Shown here in pieces: positions 3,518 through 28,163 of a stretch of DNA of 64,000 bases. The stretch covers positions 1,915,159 through 1,979,158 of the forward strand of contig OZ238992.1 of the NCBI GenBank assembly GCA_965183885.1. The letters are read 5' to 3'. Made by a program: the position numbers and the translations under genes. Within the stretch, counting starts at the first letter, position 1. The number at the start of each line of letters is the position of its first letter. The notes beneath the pieces were generated by a model. That model ran no database searches. It saw only the letters and a program-made list of their open reading frames with translations, and had not been told where the DNA came from. Source of the DNA: Flavobacteriales bacterium (GTDB lineage: Bacteria; Bacteroidota; Bacteroidia; Flavobacteriales; BACL11).

Positions 3518-4405
3518 ATGAAAATAGAAACAAAGGAAATATCACTACCACTGCTAACGGAAAAGCAAGTGCGTTTATTTGTTAAACGCATTGATAAAGT
3601 GCATCCTTTTGTTTCAGGAAACAAATGGTATAAGCTAAAGTATAACTTGTTAGCAGCAAAAAAAGAGCATTACAGCTCACTTTTAACCTTTGGAGGGGCA
3701 TATTCTAACCATATTGCAGCTAGTGCCTGGTCAGCAAAAGAAAATGGCTTTAAAAGCATTGGAATTATAAGAGGAGAGGAGTGTTTGCCCTTAAATCCTA
3801 CATTAGCTTTTGCAAAAGCACAAGGAATGGAATTGTATTACGTGAGTAGGGCTGATTATCGTCAGAAACACACTGCTAGTTTTATTAAAAGTTTAAAAAA
3901 TAGGTTTGGTAACTTTTATTTGGTTCCAGAAGGGGGAACAAATGCTTTAGCAATAAAAGGAACTGCTGAAATATTAGATGCAAATGATACTCAAGATTAT
4001 ATTTGTTCTGCTGTAGGAACTGGAGGTACTATTGCAGGAATTATTAATAACAGTAAGGTAACACAAAAGATAGTAGGCTTTACTGCAATTAAGGGTTTTA
4101 ATTTATTGAAGCAAGATATAAAAAATTGGACTGAGAAAGAAAATTGGATACTCACAGATGATTATGTAGAGGGAGGTTACGCTAAGACAAGTGAAGCTTT
4201 AGTTGAATTTATTAATCAATTTTATTTATCACAAAATATTCCTTTGGATGCTATCTATACAGGAAAAATGATGATGGGTATTTTGGATTTAGTAGCTAAA
4301 GATTACTTTCCTAAGGGAAGTAGAGTGTTAGCCATACATACAGGAGGTTTACAAGGGAATAAAGGAATGAGTGAACGGTTAGGAATTAGTTTGCCTTTAA
4401 TATAA
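3518..4405 (+). CDS. PLP-dependent enzyme, ACC deaminase / D-cysteine desulfhydrase family
   Basis: 295 aa. SGNKWYKLKYNL, GGAYSNH and C-terminal HTGGLQG are typical of this fold-type II PLP family. Confidence 0.8.
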   Translation: MKIETKEISLPLLTEKQVRLFVKRIDKVHPFVSGNKWYKLKYNLLAAKKEHYSSLLTFGGAYSNHIAASAWSAKENGFKSIGIIRGEECLPLNPTLAFAKAQGMELYYVSRADYRQKHTASFIKSLKNRFGNFYLVPEGGTNALAIKGTAEILDANDTQDYICSAVGTGGTIAGIINNSKVTQKIVGFTAIKGFNLLKQDIKNWTEKENWILTDDYVEGGYAKTSEALVEFINQFYLSQNIPLDAIYTGKMMMGILDLVAKDYFPKGSRVLAIHTGGLQGNKGMSERLGISLPLI

Positions 4406-4433
4406 TATTAGCCCTTCAAAGGCTTATTTTCTG

Positions 4434-4441
4434 TAAGTTTG
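4434..4441 (+). promoter_or_regulatory. Bacteroidota -7 promoter box TAAGTTTG (TAnnTTTG)
   Basis: Exact match to the TAnnTTTG consensus. It ends 4 nt before the ATG at 4446, implying a leaderless or near-leaderless mRNA. Confidence 0.5.
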
Positions 4442-4445
4442 TGCT

Positions 4446-5318
4446 ATGAAAAAAATCTTCCCCTTATTTCTATCTTTAATATCTTTTTTCTCTTTAGCAC
4501 AAACTAAAACAGAAGCTTATATTAATAATTATAAAACACTTGCAATTGCTGAGATGAACCGTTTTAATATTCCTGCTTCTATTACACTTGCTCAAGGGAT
4601 ATTAGAGTCAGGGAATGGTGAGAGTAGATTAGCTACTGAAGGAAAAAATCATTTTGGAATAAAATGTCATAGTAATTGGAGTGGAAAAACAATAATTGAA
4701 GATGATGATGAAAAAGGAGAATGCTTTAGAAAATATCCTAAAGTAGCAGATTCTTATAGGGATCATTCTTTATTCTTGACTGAAAGAGGACGCTACTCGT
4801 TTTTATTTGATTACTCTCCAACAGATTATAAAAAGTGGGCCAAAGGGCTTAAAAGAGCTGGCTATGCTACTAATCCTAAGTACCCATCATTATTAATTAA
4901 CTTAATTGAGCGTTATGAACTTTATCAGTATGATAAAGGTAGTGAAAGAGGGAAACAATTATATTTTGCACATACTTATGGCTTGCCTTACCTTACAGGA
5001 CTAGGAGCTTATTACTTTAATAAAAAATCTTTGTATCATCTTGATGTAAGCACATCATTTGTTTTTTCTAATGCTAGTTTTGGGTATAATTATGAGCTTT
5101 TTAATAAGTTTTATGCAGGAGCGAATACTGGAGTACTTTATTTTCCTACAAAGGAAGAAGATTTTATTCCTCAAGTTTCTGCTGAATTGATGTATAGAAA
5201 ATCAAGTAAGAATAAGCGTTATAATTCTGTATTAATAAGGGGGGGGATGCAATACCCTTTAACCAAAATGGACTATAAATTTATACCTTATATTAGTATT
5301 TCATATTTATTGAATTAA
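4446..5318 (+). CDS. Secreted glucosaminidase-domain (mannosyl-glycoprotein endo-beta-N-acetylglucosaminidase-like) protein
   Basis: Signal peptide. ITLAQGILESGNGESRLATEGKNHFGIKC matches the catalytic region of FlgJ/LytD-type glucosaminidases. The C-terminal half is aromatic-rich and of unknown function. Confidence 0.8.
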   Translation: MKKIFPLFLSLISFFSLAQTKTEAYINNYKTLAIAEMNRFNIPASITLAQGILESGNGESRLATEGKNHFGIKCHSNWSGKTIIEDDDEKGECFRKYPKVADSYRDHSLFLTERGRYSFLFDYSPTDYKKWAKGLKRAGYATNPKYPSLLINLIERYELYQYDKGSERGKQLYFAHTYGLPYLTGLGAYYFNKKSLYHLDVSTSFVFSNASFGYNYELFNKFYAGANTGVLYFPTKEEDFIPQVSAELMYRKSSKNKRYNSVLIRGGMQYPLTKMDYKFIPYISISYLLN

Positions 5319-18410: not shown

Positions 18411-18710
18411 ATGCACTCAAGGCTTAAAAATTGGATGGAATCTGAAGGCTTAAAATCCTCTGCTTTGGCGGATAGTATTGGTGTGAATCGTGCTACAATT
18501 TCTCACATACTTTCGGGTCGTAATAAGCCAAGTATTGATTTTTTAGAAAAGCTTTTGCAGCAATATTCGGACTTAAATGCCAACTGGCTTATTACAGGAA
18601 TTGGTTTTATGCAAGCTTCTAAGCAGCAAAAAGAAGTGCAGGTAAGCAAGAAAATAGGGAAAATAGTGGTCTTTTATGATGATAATTCCTTTGATGAAGT
18701 AGGGGAATAG
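18411..18710 (+). CDS. XRE-family helix-turn-helix transcriptional regulator
   Basis: 99 aa. LKSSALADSIGVNRATISHILSGRNKPSIDFLEKLL is a classic Cro/C1-type HTH. Confidence 0.8.
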   Translation: MHSRLKNWMESEGLKSSALADSIGVNRATISHILSGRNKPSIDFLEKLLQQYSDLNANWLITGIGFMQASKQQKEVQVSKKIGKIVVFYDDNSFDEVGE

Positions 18711-20884: not shown

Positions 20885-21056
20885 AGATAGAAGCTTACCA
20901 AAAGTTTCTTTACTAACTTAACTATAATTTTATTTCCAAAATTACCTATCTTCCTTAAATACCTGATTATCAATAAAAATATTGTCTATTGTTCTGTACT
21001 TATGCAAATAGGTTAGTTCAGATTTGTTTTGTATGTTTAGGGCTTTATTAGAAAAA

Positions 21057-24000
21057 ATGACAATAGAACAATATATAGACAATATAAACCAGAGATACCA
21101 ATTAGGAAATGCAACAGAACATACATTTAGAGGAGACTTACAGCAACTCATTGAAAGTTTAGTTCCTGAAATAAGAGCTACTAATGAGCCAAAAAGACAA
21201 TCTTGCGGAGCACCTGACTACATCTTGACTAAAAAAGATATACCGGTAGGGTTTATTGAAGCTAAAGATATTGGAGATAAAGACCTTGAGGGAAAGAAAA
21301 AATCAGTAAATAAAGATCAATTTGACCGATATAAAGCATCATTAGTTAATTTGATTTTTACAGATTACATAGATTTTCATTTATATAATGATGGTGAGTT
21401 TGTTACCAGAATTGCCATTGCAGAAGTAACTGAGAAAGGAATTGTTGCATTACCTCAAAATTTTGAGACGTTTGAAAATCTGATAAAAGACTTTTGCACT
21501 CACATTGGGCAAAATATAAAAAGCTCAAAAAAGCTTGCCCAAATGATGGCAGGAAAGGCTAGGCTTCTTTCTGATGTTATTGAAAAAGCTTTAACTAGTG
21601 ATGAAGATAATCATGAAGATAGTACTTTGAAAGAGCAAATGACTGCCTTTAAAAGCATTCTGATACACGATATTACTCCTAAAGGCTTTGCGGATGTTTA
21701 TGCACAAACCATTGCCTACGGAATGTTTGCAGCTCGTTTGCACGATCCAACTTTAGATACTTTTAGCAGACAAGAAGCGGCAGAATTGATACCCAAATCA
21801 AATCCATTTTTAAGAAAACTATTTGGCTACATTGCTGGACCCGATATTGATGACAGAATTAAATGGATTGTTGACAACCTTACCGAAATATTTTTAGCCT
21901 GCAATGTTGAAGAAATTCTAAAGAATTACGGAAAGTCCACAAAAATGGAAGACCCAATCATTCATTTTTATGAAACTTTTTTGGCAGAATACGACCCGAA
22001 ACTAAGAAAAGCAAGAGGTGTTTGGTACACTCCTGCCCCTGTTGTAAATTTTATTGTTCGTGCAGTTGATGATATTTTAAAAACAGAATTTGATTTACAA
22101 CAAGGTTTGGCGGAGACTTCTAAAACAAAAATTAAAGTCAAAGTACCTACCAACGATAAACGTTCTAAAGCAGGTTATAAGCAGGTTGAAAAAGAAATAC
22201 ACAAAGTACAAATTCTTGACCCTGCTACAGGAACAGGAACTTTTTTAGCAGAAGTAATAAAACACGTACACAAAAAAATTAAAGGACAAGAGGGGGTTTG
22301 GAGTAGTTATGTAGAAAAACACTTGCTACCACGCTTAAGTGGTTTTGAGTTGTTAATGGCAAGTTATGCAATGGCACATTTACAATTGGATTTATTGCTA
22401 AAAGAAACAGGGTTTAAACCTACAAAAAACCAACGAACAAGAGTTTATCTAACCAATAGTTTAGAGGAATACCACCCAGACACAGGAACTTTATTTGCCA
22501 ATTGGTTAAGTAGTGAAGCTAATGAAGCTAGCCATATAAAACGAGATACACCTGTAATGTGTATTATCGGGAATCCGCCATACAGTGGTGAAAGTGCCAA
22601 TAAAGGAGATTGGATTATGGATTTAATGCAAGACTACAAAAAAGAACCAGGAGGTAAAGAAAAATTAAAAGAACGAAACCCAAAATGGATAAATGACGAT
22701 TACGTAAAATTCTTACGCTATGGTCAGCACTTTATCGAAAAAAACGGAAGTGGTGTTTTGGCTTTTATCAATCCTCACGGATTTTTGGATAATCCTACTT
22801 TTAGAGGAATGCGTTGGAACTTACTCAAAACGTATGATAAGATTTACACCATAGATTTACATGGTAATAACAAAAAGAAAGAAGTTAGTCCTGACGGTTC
22901 AGTAGACCAAAATATTTTTGATATAGAACAAGGTGTTTCAATAAATATTTTTGTTAAAACAGGTAATAAAAAGAAAAGTGATTTGGGTAAAGTTTTTCAT
23001 TATGACCTATACGGAAAACGAAATGTTAAATATGATTTTTTATCTAATAATGATTTAAAAACTATTGATTTTAAAGAACTTGAAAATATCGTACCAAATT
23101 ATTATATGGTTCAAAAAGATTTTGCTCAACAAAAATTGTATGATAAGGGATTTGTTCTAAATAAATTATTCCCAGTAAACAGTGTTGGCATAGCAACTTC
23201 AAGAGATAGTTTCACTATTCATGAAACAAAACAAGAAGTAATTGATGTTATTGAAGAATTTTTGAGCCTTGATAATGAAACTGCTAGAGATAGGTTTAAA
23301 CTAGGGAACGATGTTCGAGATTGGAAAGTAGAACTAGCTAAAAAGGATTTAGTGGAGAGTAATTGTGACTACAACAACATAATCTCAGTAACATATCGTC
23401 CATTTGAGGATAAAAAAACATATTTCACTGGTAAATCAAAAGGTTTCCATTGTATGCCTAGAGGAAAAGTAATGGGGCACTTTTTTAATAAAAGTAATTT
23501 AGGTTTAGTTATTGGCAGACAAGGATTAGCAGTAGGTACAATGACTTGGAACTTGTCTTTTATAACCAAAAATATGACAGACCTAAATATATATAGGAGA
23601 GGTGGAGGAAATACATACCCTCTTTATCTCTATCCTGAAAACAACGAACAACAAACTATTGAAGAATCAGCAGATAGAAAACCTAACCTTAACCAAGAAA
23701 TTGTAAGAGAAATAGCTGAAAAATTGGAGTTAACATTTACCAATGAAAAAGAGCAAATGGAAAATACTTTTGCACCTATTGATATTTTAGACTACATCTA
23801 TGCCATTATACACTCACCAACTTATCGAGAGAAATACAAAGAATTTCTAAAAATCGATTTCCCAAGAATTCCTTATCCAAAAGACAAAAATACGTTTTGG
23901 AAATTGGTTAAATTAGGCAGAGAAATACGCCTAATACATTTGTTAGAGTCTCCAATAGTGGAAGATTACATTACAACTTATCCAAAAGACGGAAATAATA

Positions 24001-24278
24001 CCATTACAACCAAAGTCGGCAAAAAAGATTGGGAGTTATTTGATGAAGAAAAGCAATTGGGAAGAATATGGATAAATGAAGAACAGTACTTTGACAATAT
24101 TCCTTTAACTGCTTGGGAGTTTTATATTGGAGGCTACCAACCTGCCCAAAAGTGGTTGAAAGACCGAAAAGAAAGAACCTTAGAATTTGATGATATTTTA
24201 CATTATCAAAAAATTATAGTTGCTCTAACTGAAACGGATAGGATAATGAAGAAAATTGATAAAATTGAGATTGAATGA
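21057..24278 (+). CDS. Type IIG-like restriction-modification fusion: PD-ExK nuclease + gamma-class N6-adenine methyltransferase + type-ISP-like C-terminal specificity domain (no helicase)
   Basis: The track ORF starts at TTG 21024; I prefer ATG 21057 (MTIEQYIDN). N-terminal GAPDY..(x20)..FIEAKD (DNA 21213-21266) is PD-(D/E)xK-like. SAM motif VQILDPATGTGTFL. Catalytic IIGNPPYSG (DNA 22572-22583). The C-terminal FAPIDILDYIYAIIHSPTYREKYKEFLKIDFPRIPYP is typical of LlaGI/YeeA-type specificity domains. Confidence 0.8.
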   Translation: MTIEQYIDNINQRYQLGNATEHTFRGDLQQLIESLVPEIRATNEPKRQSCGAPDYILTKKDIPVGFIEAKDIGDKDLEGKKKSVNKDQFDRYKASLVNLIFTDYIDFHLYNDGEFVTRIAIAEVTEKGIVALPQNFETFENLIKDFCTHIGQNIKSSKKLAQMMAGKARLLSDVIEKALTSDEDNHEDSTLKEQMTAFKSILIHDITPKGFADVYAQTIAYGMFAARLHDPTLDTFSRQEAAELIPKSNPFLRKLFGYIAGPDIDDRIKWIVDNLTEIFLACNVEEILKNYGKSTKMEDPIIHFYETFLAEYDPKLRKARGVWYTPAPVVNFIVRAVDDILKTEFDLQQGLAETSKTKIKVKVPTNDKRSKAGYKQVEKEIHKVQILDPATGTGTFLAEVIKHVHKKIKGQEGVWSSYVEKHLLPRLSGFELLMASYAMAHLQLDLLLKETGFKPTKNQRTRVYLTNSLEEYHPDTGTLFANWLSSEANEASHIKRDTPVMCIIGNPPYSGESANKGDWIMDLMQDYKKEPGGKEKLKERNPKWINDDYVKFLRYGQHFIEKNGSGVLAFINPHGFLDNPTFRGMRWNLLKTYDKIYTIDLHGNNKKKEVSPDGSVDQNIFDIEQGVSINIFVKTGNKKKSDLGKVFHYDLYGKRNVKYDFLSNNDLKTIDFKELENIVPNYYMVQKDFAQQKLYDKGFVLNKLFPVNSVGIATSRDSFTIHETKQEVIDVIEEFLSLDNETARDRFKLGNDVRDWKVELAKKDLVESNCDYNNIISVTYRPFEDKKTYFTGKSKGFHCMPRGKVMGHFFNKSNLGLVIGRQGLAVGTMTWNLSFITKNMTDLNIYRRGGGNTYPLYLYPENNEQQTIEESADRKPNLNQEIVREIAEKLELTFTNEKEQMENTFAPIDILDYIYAIIHSPTYREKYKEFLKIDFPRIPYPKDKNTFWKLVKLGREIRLIHLLESPIVEDYITTYPKDGNNTITTKVGKKDWELFDEEKQLGRIWINEEQYFDNIPLTAWEFYIGGYQPAQKWLKDRKERTLEFDDILHYQKIIVALTETDRIMKKIDKIEIE

Positions 24279-25666
24279 GTAATTACTATTGTTTAGATAT
24301 TGAATTTATAAATATTGATTTTAGTTTTTGTTACAGAAACACTGAGATTCCAGTTAGTGAGGTTCATCACTGTCATTTGACCACAAGGGAAAACGAAATT
24401 GAACTTAAAATTTTCTTTGACGACCAAACTTATTTTGGTAATAAATTAATGCATTGGTCAAGTAAAATTGATTGGCGAAAATTTGGTTCATTTTTAAAAG
24501 TAGAAGTAACTAAAAACTATTTAAATGAAAGTTTACAAAAAGTAGACTTATCGGATGCTGAATTAATTGAATATATAAATAGTACAGATTATTATGAAAA
24601 TGGAAAAAAGTATATTATCTTAAAAATTAATACCGTAAAATTTTACTGGAATCCTGTTGAATATAAAAACCAAACAGCTGAATTTTATTTAGACGATAAA
24701 GGCTTTAGAGTTGTAGAGCCTTTTTACTCATTTTTATCATCAAAATCGTCTGAAAATGATGGAGAATTTGATATTGGAAGAATGAATGACTCTACTATGT
24801 TTTACAAACTTGGAAAATCAAGATTTCGTCCCGAATATAATTTTGTTTCAAAAGATGAAGGTAAAGAAAGAGTTGCTAGAATAGTCAAAGAACCTAAAAT
24901 TCAATTCAAATACGCAAAAGGAATAACTGAAATAGAAGCCATTTCTTATGGAGATGTAGTTTTAATGTTGGCTTCATTTTATCATCATATAAAAATTGAT
25001 TATACACTTAGAAGAATTCATTTGCCTGAGAACACAATCATTATAAAAAACATTGAGCAAAAAAATTACTTTAATACAAGCGGAAATCTTTGGGGTTTTG
25101 AAATTTATTGGAATTTTAACAAGTTTCTTCAGGAAAGTTGGCAAGAAGAAACTTTAAAAAACTTTGATTTACTTTCAAAAGCAATTACGTTATTTAATCA
25201 ATCGCTCTTGGTTGATAATTCTTCTGCATTTTTAATACGTTACAACATTATTGAAATTTGTGGAAAGACAAGTGCGGAAGGTGGGATTTGGAATTTCAAA
25301 TTAAAAAACGATAAATTAGACAAGTTTTTCAGTGATACGAAAGAAAGTATTTCTAATATAATTGATGAGACCGAGCAAGAGAATTTTAATAACAAGTGGA
25401 ATTCAATTCAAAGTATCATCAAGAGTAAATCACTTAGAAAACAACTTGAAGATTCACTAATCAAACACGATATTAATGTGGAATCTTTGCCTATTCAAAC
25501 AAGTAAAATAGTGCAGCTAAGAAATAATATTACTCACGGAAGTATTGATAAAGTAGATGTAGAAAAACTTAGAAAAGCAAATATATTGTTGTACAGAATT
25601 AGTGGAATACTAATATTAAACTTAATGGGAATAAAAGATTGGAAATTAAATACTGAAATTAATTAA
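24275..25666 (+). CDS. Hypothetical protein with C-terminal HEPN-like domain (R-x4-H), possible ApeA-like abortive-infection RNase
   Basis: 463 aa. Its start overlaps the RM stop (ATGA). Near the C-terminus, IVQLRNNITHGS gives R416-N-N-I-T-H421 (DNA 25520-25537), the RNxxxH HEPN signature, inside a helical region. The N-terminal roughly 300 aa is beta-rich and I do not recognise it. Confidence 0.5.
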   Translation: MSNYYCLDIEFINIDFSFCYRNTEIPVSEVHHCHLTTRENEIELKIFFDDQTYFGNKLMHWSSKIDWRKFGSFLKVEVTKNYLNESLQKVDLSDAELIEYINSTDYYENGKKYIILKINTVKFYWNPVEYKNQTAEFYLDDKGFRVVEPFYSFLSSKSSENDGEFDIGRMNDSTMFYKLGKSRFRPEYNFVSKDEGKERVARIVKEPKIQFKYAKGITEIEAISYGDVVLMLASFYHHIKIDYTLRRIHLPENTIIIKNIEQKNYFNTSGNLWGFEIYWNFNKFLQESWQEETLKNFDLLSKAITLFNQSLLVDNSSAFLIRYNIIEICGKTSAEGGIWNFKLKNDKLDKFFSDTKESISNIIDETEQENFNNKWNSIQSIIKSKSLRKQLEDSLIKHDINVESLPIQTSKIVQLRNNITHGSIDKVDVEKLRKANILLYRISGILILNLMGIKDWKLNTEIN

Positions 25667-25722
25667 CAAAATCAGTATACCAATGCTATCAATAGAATGA
25701 ATTTAGAGAAATCAAATATAAA

Positions 25723-25980
25723 ATGCAAAAAGAATTAATATTAAGATTACATTATAGAAGAGAACTAAGCGAAAAAGAAGAAGATGACTTCTTAGAAGCA
25801 CTACTCTTAGCGCTAGATAGTAAGAAAATTAGTGCGGGTGGAGGTAGCGACAATCAAAAAATAGAATGGGGAATTGATGGCTCAAGAAGTGAATTAAATA
25901 ATGCTGAAATAATCGCTTATCTGCAACAGTTCTTTAAACAGTATGAATCACTTGTTGCTACATATACCGTTAAGCCATAA
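25723..25980 (+). CDS. Small acidic hypothetical protein (85 aa)
   Basis: ORF only. Same strand as, and 56 nt downstream of, the HEPN gene. No recognisable motif. Confidence 0.4.
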   Translation: MQKELILRLHYRRELSEKEEDDFLEALLLALDSKKISAGGGSDNQKIEWGIDGSRSELNNAEIIAYLQQFFKQYESLVATYTVKP

Positions 25981-26068
25981 AACGTAATAAATTGCTTTTC
26001 CAACTAGGGTTGAGTTGTTTATTCATCTAAAAAAATAGGCCTAAGCTATTTTGTATTAAATCTTTTCT

Positions 26069-26076
26069 TAGTTTTG
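26069..26076 (+). promoter_or_regulatory. -7 promoter box TAGTTTTG driving the B12 riboswitch transcript
   Basis: Exact TAnnTTTG match about 10 nt upstream of the riboswitch 5' end. Confidence 0.5.
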
Positions 26077-26085
26077 CCCCAAGTT

Positions 26086-26236
26086 TAGTACACCACAATG
26101 GTGTAAAAGGGAATGAGGTGTAAATCCTCAACTTTACCAGAAGCTGTAAAGTCCGTAAATTTTTGGAAACTACACGAGCCACTGTTTATTAAAATGGGAA
26201 GGCCACTCCAAAAGGACCAAGTCAGAAGACCTGCTA
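26086..26236 (+). promoter_or_regulatory. Cobalamin (B12) riboswitch
   Basis: Core AAAAGGGAATGAGGTGTAAATCC..GCTGTAAAG. B12 box GAGCCACTG (26176-26184) followed by GGGAAGGC (26196-26203). 3' end GTCAGAAGACCTGC. It lies directly upstream of a TonB-dependent receptor. Confidence 0.85.
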
Positions 26237-26279
26237 AGCAAAACAAAACCGAATCGTTTCTGGATAAAACGACAGGCAG

Positions 26280-28163
26280 ATGAAACAGACTTTAGCACAC
26301 ATATTACTCTTTTTAGGAGCATCAGTACAACTGATGGCGCAAACTGCTATGGATACGATTAGCCTTCCTGAGGTTGTCTTAGAAGAGAGCCGTTTGCAAA
26401 CCCATACCATTAGCACTGTTTGTACAGCTGCAAATAAAATTATTCCTGATGCTATACTACAAGCAAGTTCACAAAGGCTTTCGGATGTATTAACACAATA
26501 TTCTTCTTTCTACATAAAGCAATATGGAGCTTTGGCTACTCCTAGTTTTAGAGGTACATCTAGTGAGCATACACTCGTTTTATGGAATGGAATTCCTATT
26601 AATTCTATCGCTAATGGCTTGCTCGATTTTTCTATTCTACCGAGTAATGGTTTTGCTAATGTGTATCTAGTACATGGTGGAGATGCTTCTGTATTTGGGA
26701 GTGGCGCAATAGGAGGGAGTGTGCATTTAAATTCTACCCCAAGTTTTAAGCCAACAAAGGAATTAAAATTAAATACTGAACAAGGAAGTTTTGGTTTAGC
26801 AAGTAAAGGCCTTTCTTTTAAGTACGCTAATGGAAAAACCTCTGCTTCAGGGGCTTTTTCTTCCTTAACTGACGCCAATGCTTTTGAGTATGTAAATATT
26901 ACTCAAATAGGGCATCCTACAGTAGTAAATGATTATGGTAAGGTAAAAAGCCAACATCAACAATTTAACCTAGCGAGTAAGTATAATAACAACAATCAAT
27001 TTTCATTTTCTTATTGGGCAGCACAAAACGAAAGAGAAGTGCCACAAAACATGACCATTCCTTTTTCGGATGCCATGCAGTATGATGCTAGTAAAAGAAT
27101 CTTATTCTCTTTAAAACACAAAAGAGAGCATATAGGCATTAGCTTAAAACAAGCATATTTACTAGAGGATTTCCGCTATACTGAGCTTAAAAAAGGGATT
27201 GATAGTAAAATACTTGCTGAAAACTACATCTCAGATATTGATGTAAAATATTATAAAGAGAACCTTTTAGTAAATATTGGAGGTATCCTTAATGCTAAGA
27301 AGATAAATACGAATAACTATAAAGCTAAGGAGCAGGAAGAGCAAACGCTAGCGGCATTCTCAGCACTACAATACCAAGCAGGGATTTTTCAGCTAGGTAC
27401 AGTGTTGCGTAAGGAATGGCAAACAGCTTATAAAGTTCCTTTTATGCCTACTTTATCATTCACTGCTGCAATAAATGATTATTTAAACCTTAGGCTTAAA
27501 TACAACAGAAACTTCCGTACGCCTACTTTTAACGAGCGATACTGGATAGGAGCAGGGACAAATGGAAATCCTGATTTGGTTCCAGAAAGTGCTTGGAATA
27601 AAGAGTTTGGATTTGATATTTCCTCAAGGTTTATTAAGTTTAGTGCTACTGCTTATAACTTAGATATATCTGATATGATACTCTGGCAACAGTTAGAAAA
27701 TGGAAATTGGACAACTGATAATATAAAGCAAGTTTGGAGTAGAGGGCTTGAAGGAAAAATAAAAATCAAGATTAAGGATTTAAGTATTATTGGAAATTAC
27801 GCTTATACCAAATCTACTAGTGAGATACCTACAGATAATTTAGATGAGTCCGTTGGAGAGCAGCTAAGGTATGTTCCGCTTCATAAAGGAAATATTACAT
27901 TTATAATTACTGAAGACAACTTACAATTGAGCTTAAATCAATCTTATACAGGAGAGGTTATTACTTCTCATGGTGCTTTGGAAAACAAGACTTTAGATGC
28001 TTTTATCTTAACCGATATTGCTGTAAAATATACAGTAAAGGGTTCCCCAATTAGCATAACTGGGCAAGTAAAAAACTTGATGAATAAGAGCTATACTACT
28101 TATCAAAATTATCCTAACCCAGGAAGAGAATTATTATTAACATTAAATTATACACTAAATTAA
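26280..28163 (+). CDS. btuB: TonB-dependent receptor, vitamin B12 transporter type
   Basis: 627 aa. Signal peptide, plug (SFRGTSSEHTLVLWNGIPIN, GGDASVFGSGAIGGSVHL) and a 22-strand-size barrel. The btuB assignment comes from the upstream cobalamin riboswitch. Confidence 0.8.
   Translation: MKQTLAHILLFLGASVQLMAQTAMDTISLPEVVLEESRLQTHTISTVCTAANKIIPDAILQASSQRLSDVLTQYSSFYIKQYGALATPSFRGTSSEHTLVLWNGIPINSIANGLLDFSILPSNGFANVYLVHGGDASVFGSGAIGGSVHLNSTPSFKPTKELKLNTEQGSFGLASKGLSFKYANGKTSASGAFSSLTDANAFEYVNITQIGHPTVVNDYGKVKSQHQQFNLASKYNNNNQFSFSYWAAQNEREVPQNMTIPFSDAMQYDASKRILFSLKHKREHIGISLKQAYLLEDFRYTELKKGIDSKILAENYISDIDVKYYKENLLVNIGGILNAKKINTNNYKAKEQEEQTLAAFSALQYQAGIFQLGTVLRKEWQTAYKVPFMPTLSFTAAINDYLNLRLKYNRNFRTPTFNERYWIGAGTNGNPDLVPESAWNKEFGFDISSRFIKFSATAYNLDISDMILWQQLENGNWTTDNIKQVWSRGLEGKIKIKIKDLSIIGNYAYTKSTSEIPTDNLDESVGEQLRYVPLHKGNITFIITEDNLQLSLNQSYTGEVITSHGALENKTLDAFILTDIAVKYTVKGSPISITGQVKNLMNKSYTTYQNYPNPGRELLLTLNYTLN

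Follow-up and report, generated by a model that had tools for sequence, protein, structure and literature searches.

A predicted HEPN-type ribonuclease family of Bacteroidota with recurrent, non-obligate linkage to restriction-modification genes

Within a 64,000-nt stretch of a Flavobacteriales genome (assembly GCA_965183885.1, contig OZ238992.1, positions 1,915,159 to 1,979,158 of the forward strand; in the following called the window), we analyzed an open reading frame (ORF) of 463 amino acids (aa) that directly follows a restriction-modification (RM) gene. This ORF is genuine and very probably encodes a HEPN-type ribonuclease (RNase) with an unrecognized beta-rich sensor domain. The protein belongs to an uncharacterized defense-gene family of the Bacteroidota, whose linkage to RM genes is recurrent, convergent across RM classes and structurally stereotyped, and is obligate for neither gene. 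We lean, with slightly better than even confidence, toward an autonomous, self-restrained HEPN RNase effector that would be co-expressed with a first-line RM enzyme as a layered defense.

Both the ORF listing and the raw sequence place the gene for this protein, with its beta-rich N-terminal domain and its predicted HEPN C-terminal domain, at positions 24275–25666 (+) of the window, with an ATG start; all window genes and motifs given with coordinates below lie on the same strand. The upstream RM ORF (21024–24278, 1084 aa) ends with the stop codon TGA at 24276–24278, so that the tetranucleotide ATGA (24275–24278) is common to the RM stop and the HEPN start, a junction of the translational-coupling type. 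This confirms the gene model of an earlier note on this DNA, in which a 463-aa ORF started within the RM stop.

A search of 5.8 billion clustered proteins yielded 327 relatives. The best 120 of these are 59–78% identical, almost all 464–466 aa long and nearly all unnamed. A profile search of 1.84 billion representatives found 219 clusters at 50% identity, mostly of full length (440–480 aa). The named sources and the genome loci place the relatives in Bacteroidota: Saprospiraceae, Flavobacterium, Tenacibaculum, Winogradskyella, Zobellia, Adhaeribacter, Cytophagales, Paludibacter and Bacteroidales. One homolog, in a Bacteroidetes metagenome-assembled genome (MAG; locus L013, 6001–7387), is frameshifted and split over three frames, probably representing a pseudogene.

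The assignment to the HEPN RNases starts from the sequence LRNNITHG (residues 415–422), in which R416 (nt 25520–25522) and H421 (nt 25535–25537) delimit the predicted catalytic R-x4-H motif R416-N-N-I-T-H421 (25520–25537). It is the sole R-x(4-6)-H in the protein. By itself the motif proves nothing, because approximately 0.31 occurrences of R-x4-H are expected by chance given the composition of the protein. Judged from the family alignment, it is conservation that lifts the motif above chance. In an alignment of 101 full-length family representatives, whose identity to the window protein ranges from 17% to 60%, 100 retain R416 and 100 retain H421, even at the lower end of this range. Also conserved are G422 and P207 (98 each), E327 (96, with an aspartate in three) and K205 (91); the columns conserved in at least 90% of the representatives are L139, K205, P207, E327, R416, H421 and G422.

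We modeled the structure with AlphaFold2. The alignment of the 101 diverse representatives gave a model with a pLDDT of 95.3 and a pTM of 0.91, and a poor model obtained from close homologs only (pLDDT 66.7) was discarded. In the retained model, residues 281–450 are helical with a pLDDT >90, and we delineate from them a predicted all-helical HEPN domain of approximately aa 281–463 (25115–25663). The conserved acidic residue of the HEPN core, E327 (25253–25255), lies in the NIIE helix (residues 315–330). R416 is placed in a helix of residues 409–420 with H421 directly after it, and a long helix (429–450) follows. Three inserted helices (345–397) lie between the E327 helix and the R416 helix.

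The Pfam family HEPN_Apea (PF18739) matches aa 349–438 of the window protein with 20.7 bits (E 5.8e-4). The same model matches 12 of 32 close relatives at E≤0.01 and 12 of the 101 representatives at E≤1e-3, with a best E-value of 7.9e-7. The close homolog P0024 (71% identical) carries a precomputed PF18739 match, and the UniRef name of another, P0048, is "ApeA N-terminal domain-containing protein". On the same C-terminal stretch, five representatives are matched by HEPN_RiboL-PSP (1.7e-5), one by a HepT-like model and one by Swt1 and the PADLOC Csx1 model (3.2e-5). Near-invariant R and H residues, conservation of the acidic residue in an earlier helix, a helical fold in the model and weak matches to several HEPN models together make it very likely that the C-terminus is a catalytic HEPN domain, located at the periphery of what HEPN_Apea describes.

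The earlier note had read LRNNITHG as the HEPN signature and had named the conservation of its R and H among homologs as a point on which this reading would depend. With each residue kept in all but one representative, the signature stands. The comparison with HEPN families, proposed as a check, came out divided: several Pfam and PADLOC HEPN models match weakly, and the whole-chain structure search described below returned no match at E≤1e-3.

The N-terminal part was expected to be beta-rich and of no recognizable family, in front of a helical C-terminus, and the model agrees. Residues 1–260 are mostly beta with few helices (strands extend to residue 259), and we assign a beta-rich domain of approximately aa 1–280 (24275–25114) with many conserved aromatics and a presumed sensory or regulatory function. 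Several polar or aromatic residues in this part are near-invariant, among them K205, P207, R169, D162 and W61. No Pfam family matched residues 1–290 of the window protein or of the scanned relatives with E-values up to 10, and the region likewise has no match in PDB or BFVD. A Foldseek search with the whole chain against PDB (350,542 chains) and BFVD gave nothing at E≤1e-3. Its top matches, beta-sandwich and pore-forming proteins, had query-normalized TM-scores of ≤0.15 and were taken as noise. Profiles of the whole family and of the C-terminal domain, searched against PDB sequences, likewise retrieved no relative.

The size and layout of the protein had also been likened to ApeA-type HEPN defense proteins. 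By description, this resemblance extends to one of two groups that bear the name. In the computational survey of Anantharaman et al. 2013, ApeA-NTD1 is a domain of approximately 300 aa, consisting mostly of beta strands with conserved aromatics and fused to an Apea HEPN domain, and this clade was noted there as embedded in RM operons (PMC3710099). The layout of the window protein fits this description. Likened by description, it shares with the "ApeA/BMEI1217" clade (PF18739) a beta-rich, aromatic N-terminus, an R-x4-H HEPN domain and the RM-operon setting, and HEPN_Apea is the best Pfam match here. It differs in that it scores under the PF18739 cut-off, with only 12 of the 101 representatives matching at E≤1e-3, and in that its N-terminal 290 residues have no Pfam match. 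The description of this clade is purely computational (PMC3710099).

The characterized ApeA proteins are a different matter. We recovered the full genes of Ec2ApeA (L075, 3105–4853) and Ec1ApeA (L076, 3151–4953) from E. coli genomes; no RM gene adjoins either of them. The PADLOC ApeA model (PDLC02157), which gives 1385 bits for Ec1ApeA and 45 bits for Ec2ApeA, did not match the window protein or three relatives at E≤1. Aligned by hhalign to single ApeA sequences and to a 36-sequence ApeA alignment, the family gave approximately 56 columns around R-N-x-I-x-H with a probability of 2–6%, R416 being in register with Ec2ApeA R502 and H421 with H507. ApeA proteins, 583–601 aa in length, are mainly helical in structure and are divided into an N-terminal, a Mid and a HEPN domain (bioRxiv 10.64898/2026.01.26.701840), whereas the window protein has 463 aa and a beta-rich N-terminus. 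With no PADLOC match, an alignment limited to the motif and a different N-terminal fold, we rejected membership in the characterized ApeA family. Neither Ec1ApeA nor Ec2ApeA is matched by HEPN_Apea at E≤0.1; hence, the name of the defense system and the name of the Pfam family cover different proteins.

Shared with ApeA are the large single polypeptide, the C-terminal HEPN domain with R-N-x-I-x-H and the idea that a sensing domain without catalytic function gates the RNase. By analogy, the window protein may follow the same principle (bioRxiv 10.64898/2026.01.26.701840 and 10.64898/2026.03.20.713152). A more specific form of this analogy, to which we give a slim chance, is that the non-catalytic domain would bind small products of DNA breakdown, formed by the RM enzyme and host exonucleases on phage DNA or by phage nucleases on host DNA, so that the RM enzyme would feed the trigger of the RNase. 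Ec2ApeA is activated by 5′-phosphorylated deoxydinucleotides in a pocket outside of the active site (bioRxiv 10.64898/2026.01.26.701840); the near-invariant K205, P207, R169, D162 and W61 would be compatible with a ligand pocket, and the gene is physically coupled to that of a DNA-cleaving enzyme. However, no homology to the pocket or to either of the N-terminal and Mid domains of ApeA is detectable, and the fold class differs. Moreover, the ligand varies even within ApeA, as Ec1ApeA binds no dinucleotides, and the support for this idea is one of analogy only.

The product of the upstream gene (21024–24278) is a single-chain type IIG/IIL RM enzyme that combines a nuclease, a gamma-class N6-adenine methyltransferase and a Type_ISP_C specificity domain and has no helicase. 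It matches the PADLOC model REase_MTase_IIG (PDLC03610) over its full length with 1200 bits, and Pfam assigns Type_ISP_C (1.5e-89) together with N6_Mtase, Eco57I and MmeI_Mtase. No helicase family was matched in the Pfam and PADLOC scans, in line with the helicase-less, type IIG-like RM fusion described before. An NPPY motif is located at residue 517; a candidate nuclease motif of the PD-(D/E)xK type is D65...E79-A-K81. The closest relatives in the PDB by sequence are 7lo5, which we take to be the type IIL enzyme DrdV, LlaBIII (4xqk) and LlaGI (5ffj), in each case for the methyltransferase and specificity-domain part only. The listed ORF starts with TTG at 21024. As the homologs and the PADLOC alignment begin at MT(I/L)EQYI, which reads MTIEQYI in the window, the true start is probably the ATG at 21057. 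Approximately 45 nt upstream of this ATG we noted the motif GTTAGTTCAGATTTG.

To follow the linkage of the two genes, we collected 13 genome and 61 metagenome loci (L numbers) and distinguished two families of upstream enzymes: RM1, the Type_ISP_C-type family of the window, and RM2, a type IIG enzyme with DUF7149, DUF7814, Eco57I and TaqI_C. In 27 related loci, RM1 ends at the HEPN start (tblastn), and all 26 of these junctions that could be read show a stop/start overlap (ATGA, TGATG or TAATG) like that in the window. It is thus plausible that the overlap reflects co-expression, as had been suggested. Three loci (L011, L063 and L067) have RM2 upstream instead; the overlap in L011 is again ATGA, and L067 has a 299-aa ORF between both genes. 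Neither RM1 nor RM2 is present in another 25 loci, in each of which 300 bp or more could be read upstream.

In these RM-less loci, the HEPN gene mostly lies 100–600 bp from the nearest upstream ORF. The neighbors differ between loci and include housekeeping genes (ClpB, FtsY, a carboxyltransferase) as well as defense genes (a Schlafen-type helicase, SIR2, Abi_alpha). We found no conserved partner gene among them; the 278-aa upstream ORFs of L085 and L089, considered as a common partner, were rejected as mutually unrelated. Distant relatives occur in further settings. In L080, the gene is the last of a type I hsdR-hsdM-hsdS operon. In L085, it belongs to an island with an MmeI-type RM gene, DUF3800, a helicase and T5orf172. 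In L082, it is found between two reverse-transcriptase genes and an AAA_15/21 ATPase gene with an integrase nearby.

The measured co-occurrence (27 RM1-linked, three RM2-linked and 25 RM-less loci) does not agree with the earlier idea that such a protein is fixed in an operon with the RM enzyme, because approximately half of the informative homologous loci lack an upstream RM gene and RM1 is widespread without a HEPN partner. The RM1 family is present in 211 plasmid records from many phyla, 44 of which cover ≥80% of the enzyme. In contrast, no HEPN homolog was found in the plasmid collection, in phage genomes (tblastn) or in viral contigs (scan). The linkage state mapped on a neighbor-joining tree of the N-terminal domain requires at least 10 changes, whereas shuffled states required 18 on average and never fewer than 13; therefore, linkage is partly inherited, yet was gained or lost many times. 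In a Cytophagales MAG (L010, 1696–5989), an inserted YhcG/DUF1016 PD-(D/E)xK nuclease gene (3584–4606) splits the RM gene, with an intact HEPN gene downstream.

The two conserved HEPN helices enclose a variable cassette (aa 331–412; 25265–25510) with two alleles that are only 16–23% identical, within flanking protein parts that are 45–92% identical and proteins that otherwise share 60–77% identity. Allele A is present in 11 loci, the window, L001–L003, L010 and L014–L019, all of which are RM1-linked. Allele B occurs in 16 RM1-linked loci, in the three RM2-linked loci and in all 25 RM-less loci. The association of allele A with RM1 has a Fisher p of 2.9e-4, not corrected for phylogeny. Allele A appears at eight separate places on the N-terminal tree, a scatter that indicates mosaic recombination. 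An explanation by RM subclade was rejected, as the allele-A loci do not group together on the RM tree. The pattern could reflect co-adaptation with the RM enzyme or, equally, recombination confined to the pool of RM1-linked modules.

These findings bear on an alternative in which the tie to the RM enzyme is functional. By analogy to PrrC, the RM enzyme would bind and silence the HEPN RNase, acting as both sensor and antitoxin, and a phage anti-restriction protein that disables the RM enzyme would unleash the RNase. Such a guard model was proposed for RM-linked HEPN proteins by Anantharaman et al. 2013 (PMC3710099). It would account for the invariant gene order and the overlap at every RM1-linked junction read, for the restriction of allele A to RM1-linked loci (11/11) despite its eight tree positions, and for separate origins of linkage with three or more kinds of RM system, namely RM1, type I and the Eco57I/TaqI_C type, alongside the proximity to an MmeI-type enzyme. 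It would also fit a peculiarity of the RM protein. The specificity part (window 23400–24278; compared with the RM genes of L004, L007, L014, L043 and others) is hypervariable, with the last 200 aa approximately 30% identical in most pairs; yet the final ~50 residues by the junction are 79–94% conserved in the loci comparable in register.

We nevertheless consider the guard model unlikely. Approximately half of the homologs, all with allele B, exist without an RM gene, so that there is no general need of the RM enzyme for silencing, and the partner enzymes come from unrelated families, making a conserved protein–protein interface improbable. Allele A follows no RM subclade, and homologous recombination among RM1-linked modules would give the same allele pattern without selection. 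Less probable still, in our estimate, is a more elaborate version in which the three-helix cassette (aa 331–412) would form a surface that reads the partner or evades inhibitors, with allele A co-adapted to the Type_ISP_C class of type IIG enzymes. The RNase would then fire when phage anti-restriction blocks the RM enzyme, PrrC-like logic would have been re-invented on a beta-rich scaffold and joined independently to type IIG, IIL and I systems, and allele B would be the free-standing form, occurring also as an integron cassette.

The free-standing copies show traces of mobility of their own. Integron core and inverse-core sites follow the consensus GTTRRRY and RYYYAAC. Among the 25 RM-less loci, nine have GTTAGG(CACAAT) within 160 nt upstream of the start and nine have the inverted partner (ACTGTG)CCTAAC within 70 nt past the stop; from hexamer frequencies, approximately 0.3 such core sites are expected per 25 loci, and none of 23 RM1-linked loci carries either. 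In total, 9–11 RM-less loci carry integron attC core sites (GTTAGGC/GCCTAAC). In five loci, the distance from CCTAAC to the next GTTAGC or GTTAT is 131–134 nt, as in attC-like sites (L020, 2470–2600; L024, 4328–4459; L028, 6415–6546; L045, 5449–5581; L051, from 6404), with upstream cores for example at L008 5971 and L045 4019. By single-strand folding and RNAalifold, these five sites share a fold of R-box, L-box and GC stem that surrounds a variable loop; compensatory changes are seen in 14 of its 24 pairs. L024 has YCTAAC 38–56 nt past each of three consecutive co-oriented ORFs. The evidence for attC thus consists of hexamer enrichment, single-strand folding and RNAalifold; three strict custom attC scanners, with thresholds that were too strict, recovered none of the sites seen by eye.

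On this basis, many free-standing copies look like integron gene cassettes in Bacteroidota; no integrase gene was seen near them, although no search aimed at one was made. They resemble the "integron cassette HEPN" genes (PMC3710099) and the cassettes reported to encode phage defense systems (bioRxiv 10.1101/2024.07.02.601719) in that RM-less homologs are flanked by GTTAGGC/GCCTAAC. The window copy differs, as no attC-like flank was found there and it forms part of a two-gene RM module between housekeeping genes.

Such mobile contexts, integron cassettes and low-GC islands, would also suit a non-immune function, either as an addiction toxin that stabilizes the RM system or the integron cassette, or as a non-catalytic RNA-binding accessory, and HEPN toxins are common in toxin–antitoxin systems (PMC3710099). 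We regard this as the most doubtful of the explanations considered here. No antitoxin-like neighbor (an MNT gene or a small upstream ORF) is common to the loci, the near-invariant R, H and E argue for catalysis, and the large, conserved, sensor-like domain is atypical of minimal HEPN toxins.

Separately, a conserved element of ~100 nt lies directly 3′ of the HEPN stop in most RM1-linked loci (L014, 6125–6235; L004, 4762–4872; L001, 1482–1600; and at least 14 others). It has GCCAACGC repeats at its bounds and a 12-bp hairpin inside, with compensatory changes at four pairs but only about two haplotypes. The element, which is not present in the window, could act as a terminator or a site of recombination, or may mark the module boundary.

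Taken together, we favor a HEPN RNase that acts autonomously, restrains itself and is expressed along with the RM enzyme, because the many RM-less copies show no general need of the RM enzyme for tolerance. By analogy to characterized HEPN RNases (PMC3710099 and the two ApeA preprints), the beta-rich N-terminal domain of ~280 aa would sense an infection cue, the protein being latent until then. The HEPN domain would dimerize and form a composite active site from R416 and H421, and the activated enzyme would cut RNA, be it host tRNA or rRNA or phage RNA, thereby stopping phage propagation. By capture, the gene would have joined a type IIG/IIL RM gene in a two-gene operon, in the promoter-distal position and with translational coupling. 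Because of this coupling, the cell would express a first line acting on DNA jointly with a second line acting on RNA. The best explanation for the RM-HEPN coupling is then common expression and co-mobility and not obligate dependence. Autonomy is supported by the ~25 RM-less loci, by the intact HEPN gene in L010 and by RM1 enzymes on plasmids without a HEPN homolog. The defense context, with Schlafen-type helicase, SIR2, Abi_alpha, RM and reverse-transcriptase neighbors, likewise speaks for this explanation.

Several points weigh against it. The predicted HEPN fold found no confirming structural neighbor in the whole-chain Foldseek search of PDB and BFVD, and the window protein's own HEPN_Apea score of 20.7 bits stays under the curated gathering cut-off of 24.4 bits. 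The strict conservation of the junction and the presence of allele A only in RM1-linked loci (11/11) hint at a tie tighter than co-expression. With no homolog in the phage, plasmid and viral-contig collections, mobility is read from the patchy distribution, the GC dip and the attC flanks only. Finally, RNase activity, a defense role, latency, N-terminal activation and the layered-defense logic are all features that we infer by analogy for a family known here from sequences and a predicted structure.

To our knowledge, only PrrC and RloC have been worked out among the RM-linked HEPN RNases. The PrrC-EcoprrI and RloC systems resemble the arrangement described here in that the gene of a HEPN-type RNase lies in or is attached to an RM locus, with a layered DNA-then-RNA logic (PMC3710099). 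They differ in their N-terminal ABC/NTPase domain and their type I partners; here, the N-terminus is beta-rich and was not matched by any ATPase family, the partner is a single-chain type IIG/IIL enzyme and approximately half of the loci are RM-free. An operon of this kind is not without precedent: RM-linked HEPN nucleases are an established theme, predicted in 2013 to act as second-line suicide RNases (PMC3710099), and PrrC-EcoprrI is characterized.

In the window, the module lies within a low-GC stretch (22500–26000) with a GC content of 0.275–0.31 compared with 0.34–0.38 in the flanks, a dip consistent with horizontal acquisition of the RM-HEPN module between housekeeping genes. It is flanked by an HMGL-like gene on one side and by a cobalamin riboswitch paired with a TonB-dependent receptor gene on the other. 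The riboswitch (Rfam RF00174, 87.7 bits; 26069–26252), upstream of a TonB-dependent receptor gene (26280–28163), marks the downstream edge of the insertion. No direct or inverted flanking repeats delimiting the island were found. Downstream of the HEPN gene, an 85-aa ORF (25723–25980) has no family match and no counterpart beside any homolog or related locus, which leaves its membership in the module doubtful. Approximately 2.3 kb upstream of the RM gene and separated from it by two metabolic genes, we noted a stand-alone gene for a 99-aa XRE-type HTH protein (18411–18710). A scan for promoters and terminators gave 20 promoter-like sites compared with 24.8 expected; it is ill-suited to Bacteroidota promoters and was uninformative.

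The HEPN gene thus adds to a known theme, and its partnership with RM genes is not obligate. Five aspects appear to be new: a family that has no PADLOC model, only borderline Pfam coverage and an N-terminal fold unmatched in PDB and BFVD; the stereotyped overlap with single-chain type IIG/IIL enzymes; a convergent attachment to several RM classes; RM-less copies by integron attC core sites; and a cassette swapped between lineages within the HEPN domain. At ~464 aa, with a highly conserved length and unmatched in the PADLOC library, this compact family is a handy experimental system. Its three natural states (translational coupling to a single-chain RM enzyme, coupling to RM enzymes of unrelated classes, and a free-standing form that is often found beside integron attC core sites) permit co-expression to be tested against cross-talk. 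If these proteins are simply independent Abi-type RNases, they are a useful yet incremental addition to the defense catalog. If the reading presented here is confirmed, the beta-rich N-terminal domain could represent a new type of module for sensing infection, and the swapped HEPN cassette may mark a specificity or anti-inhibitor surface.

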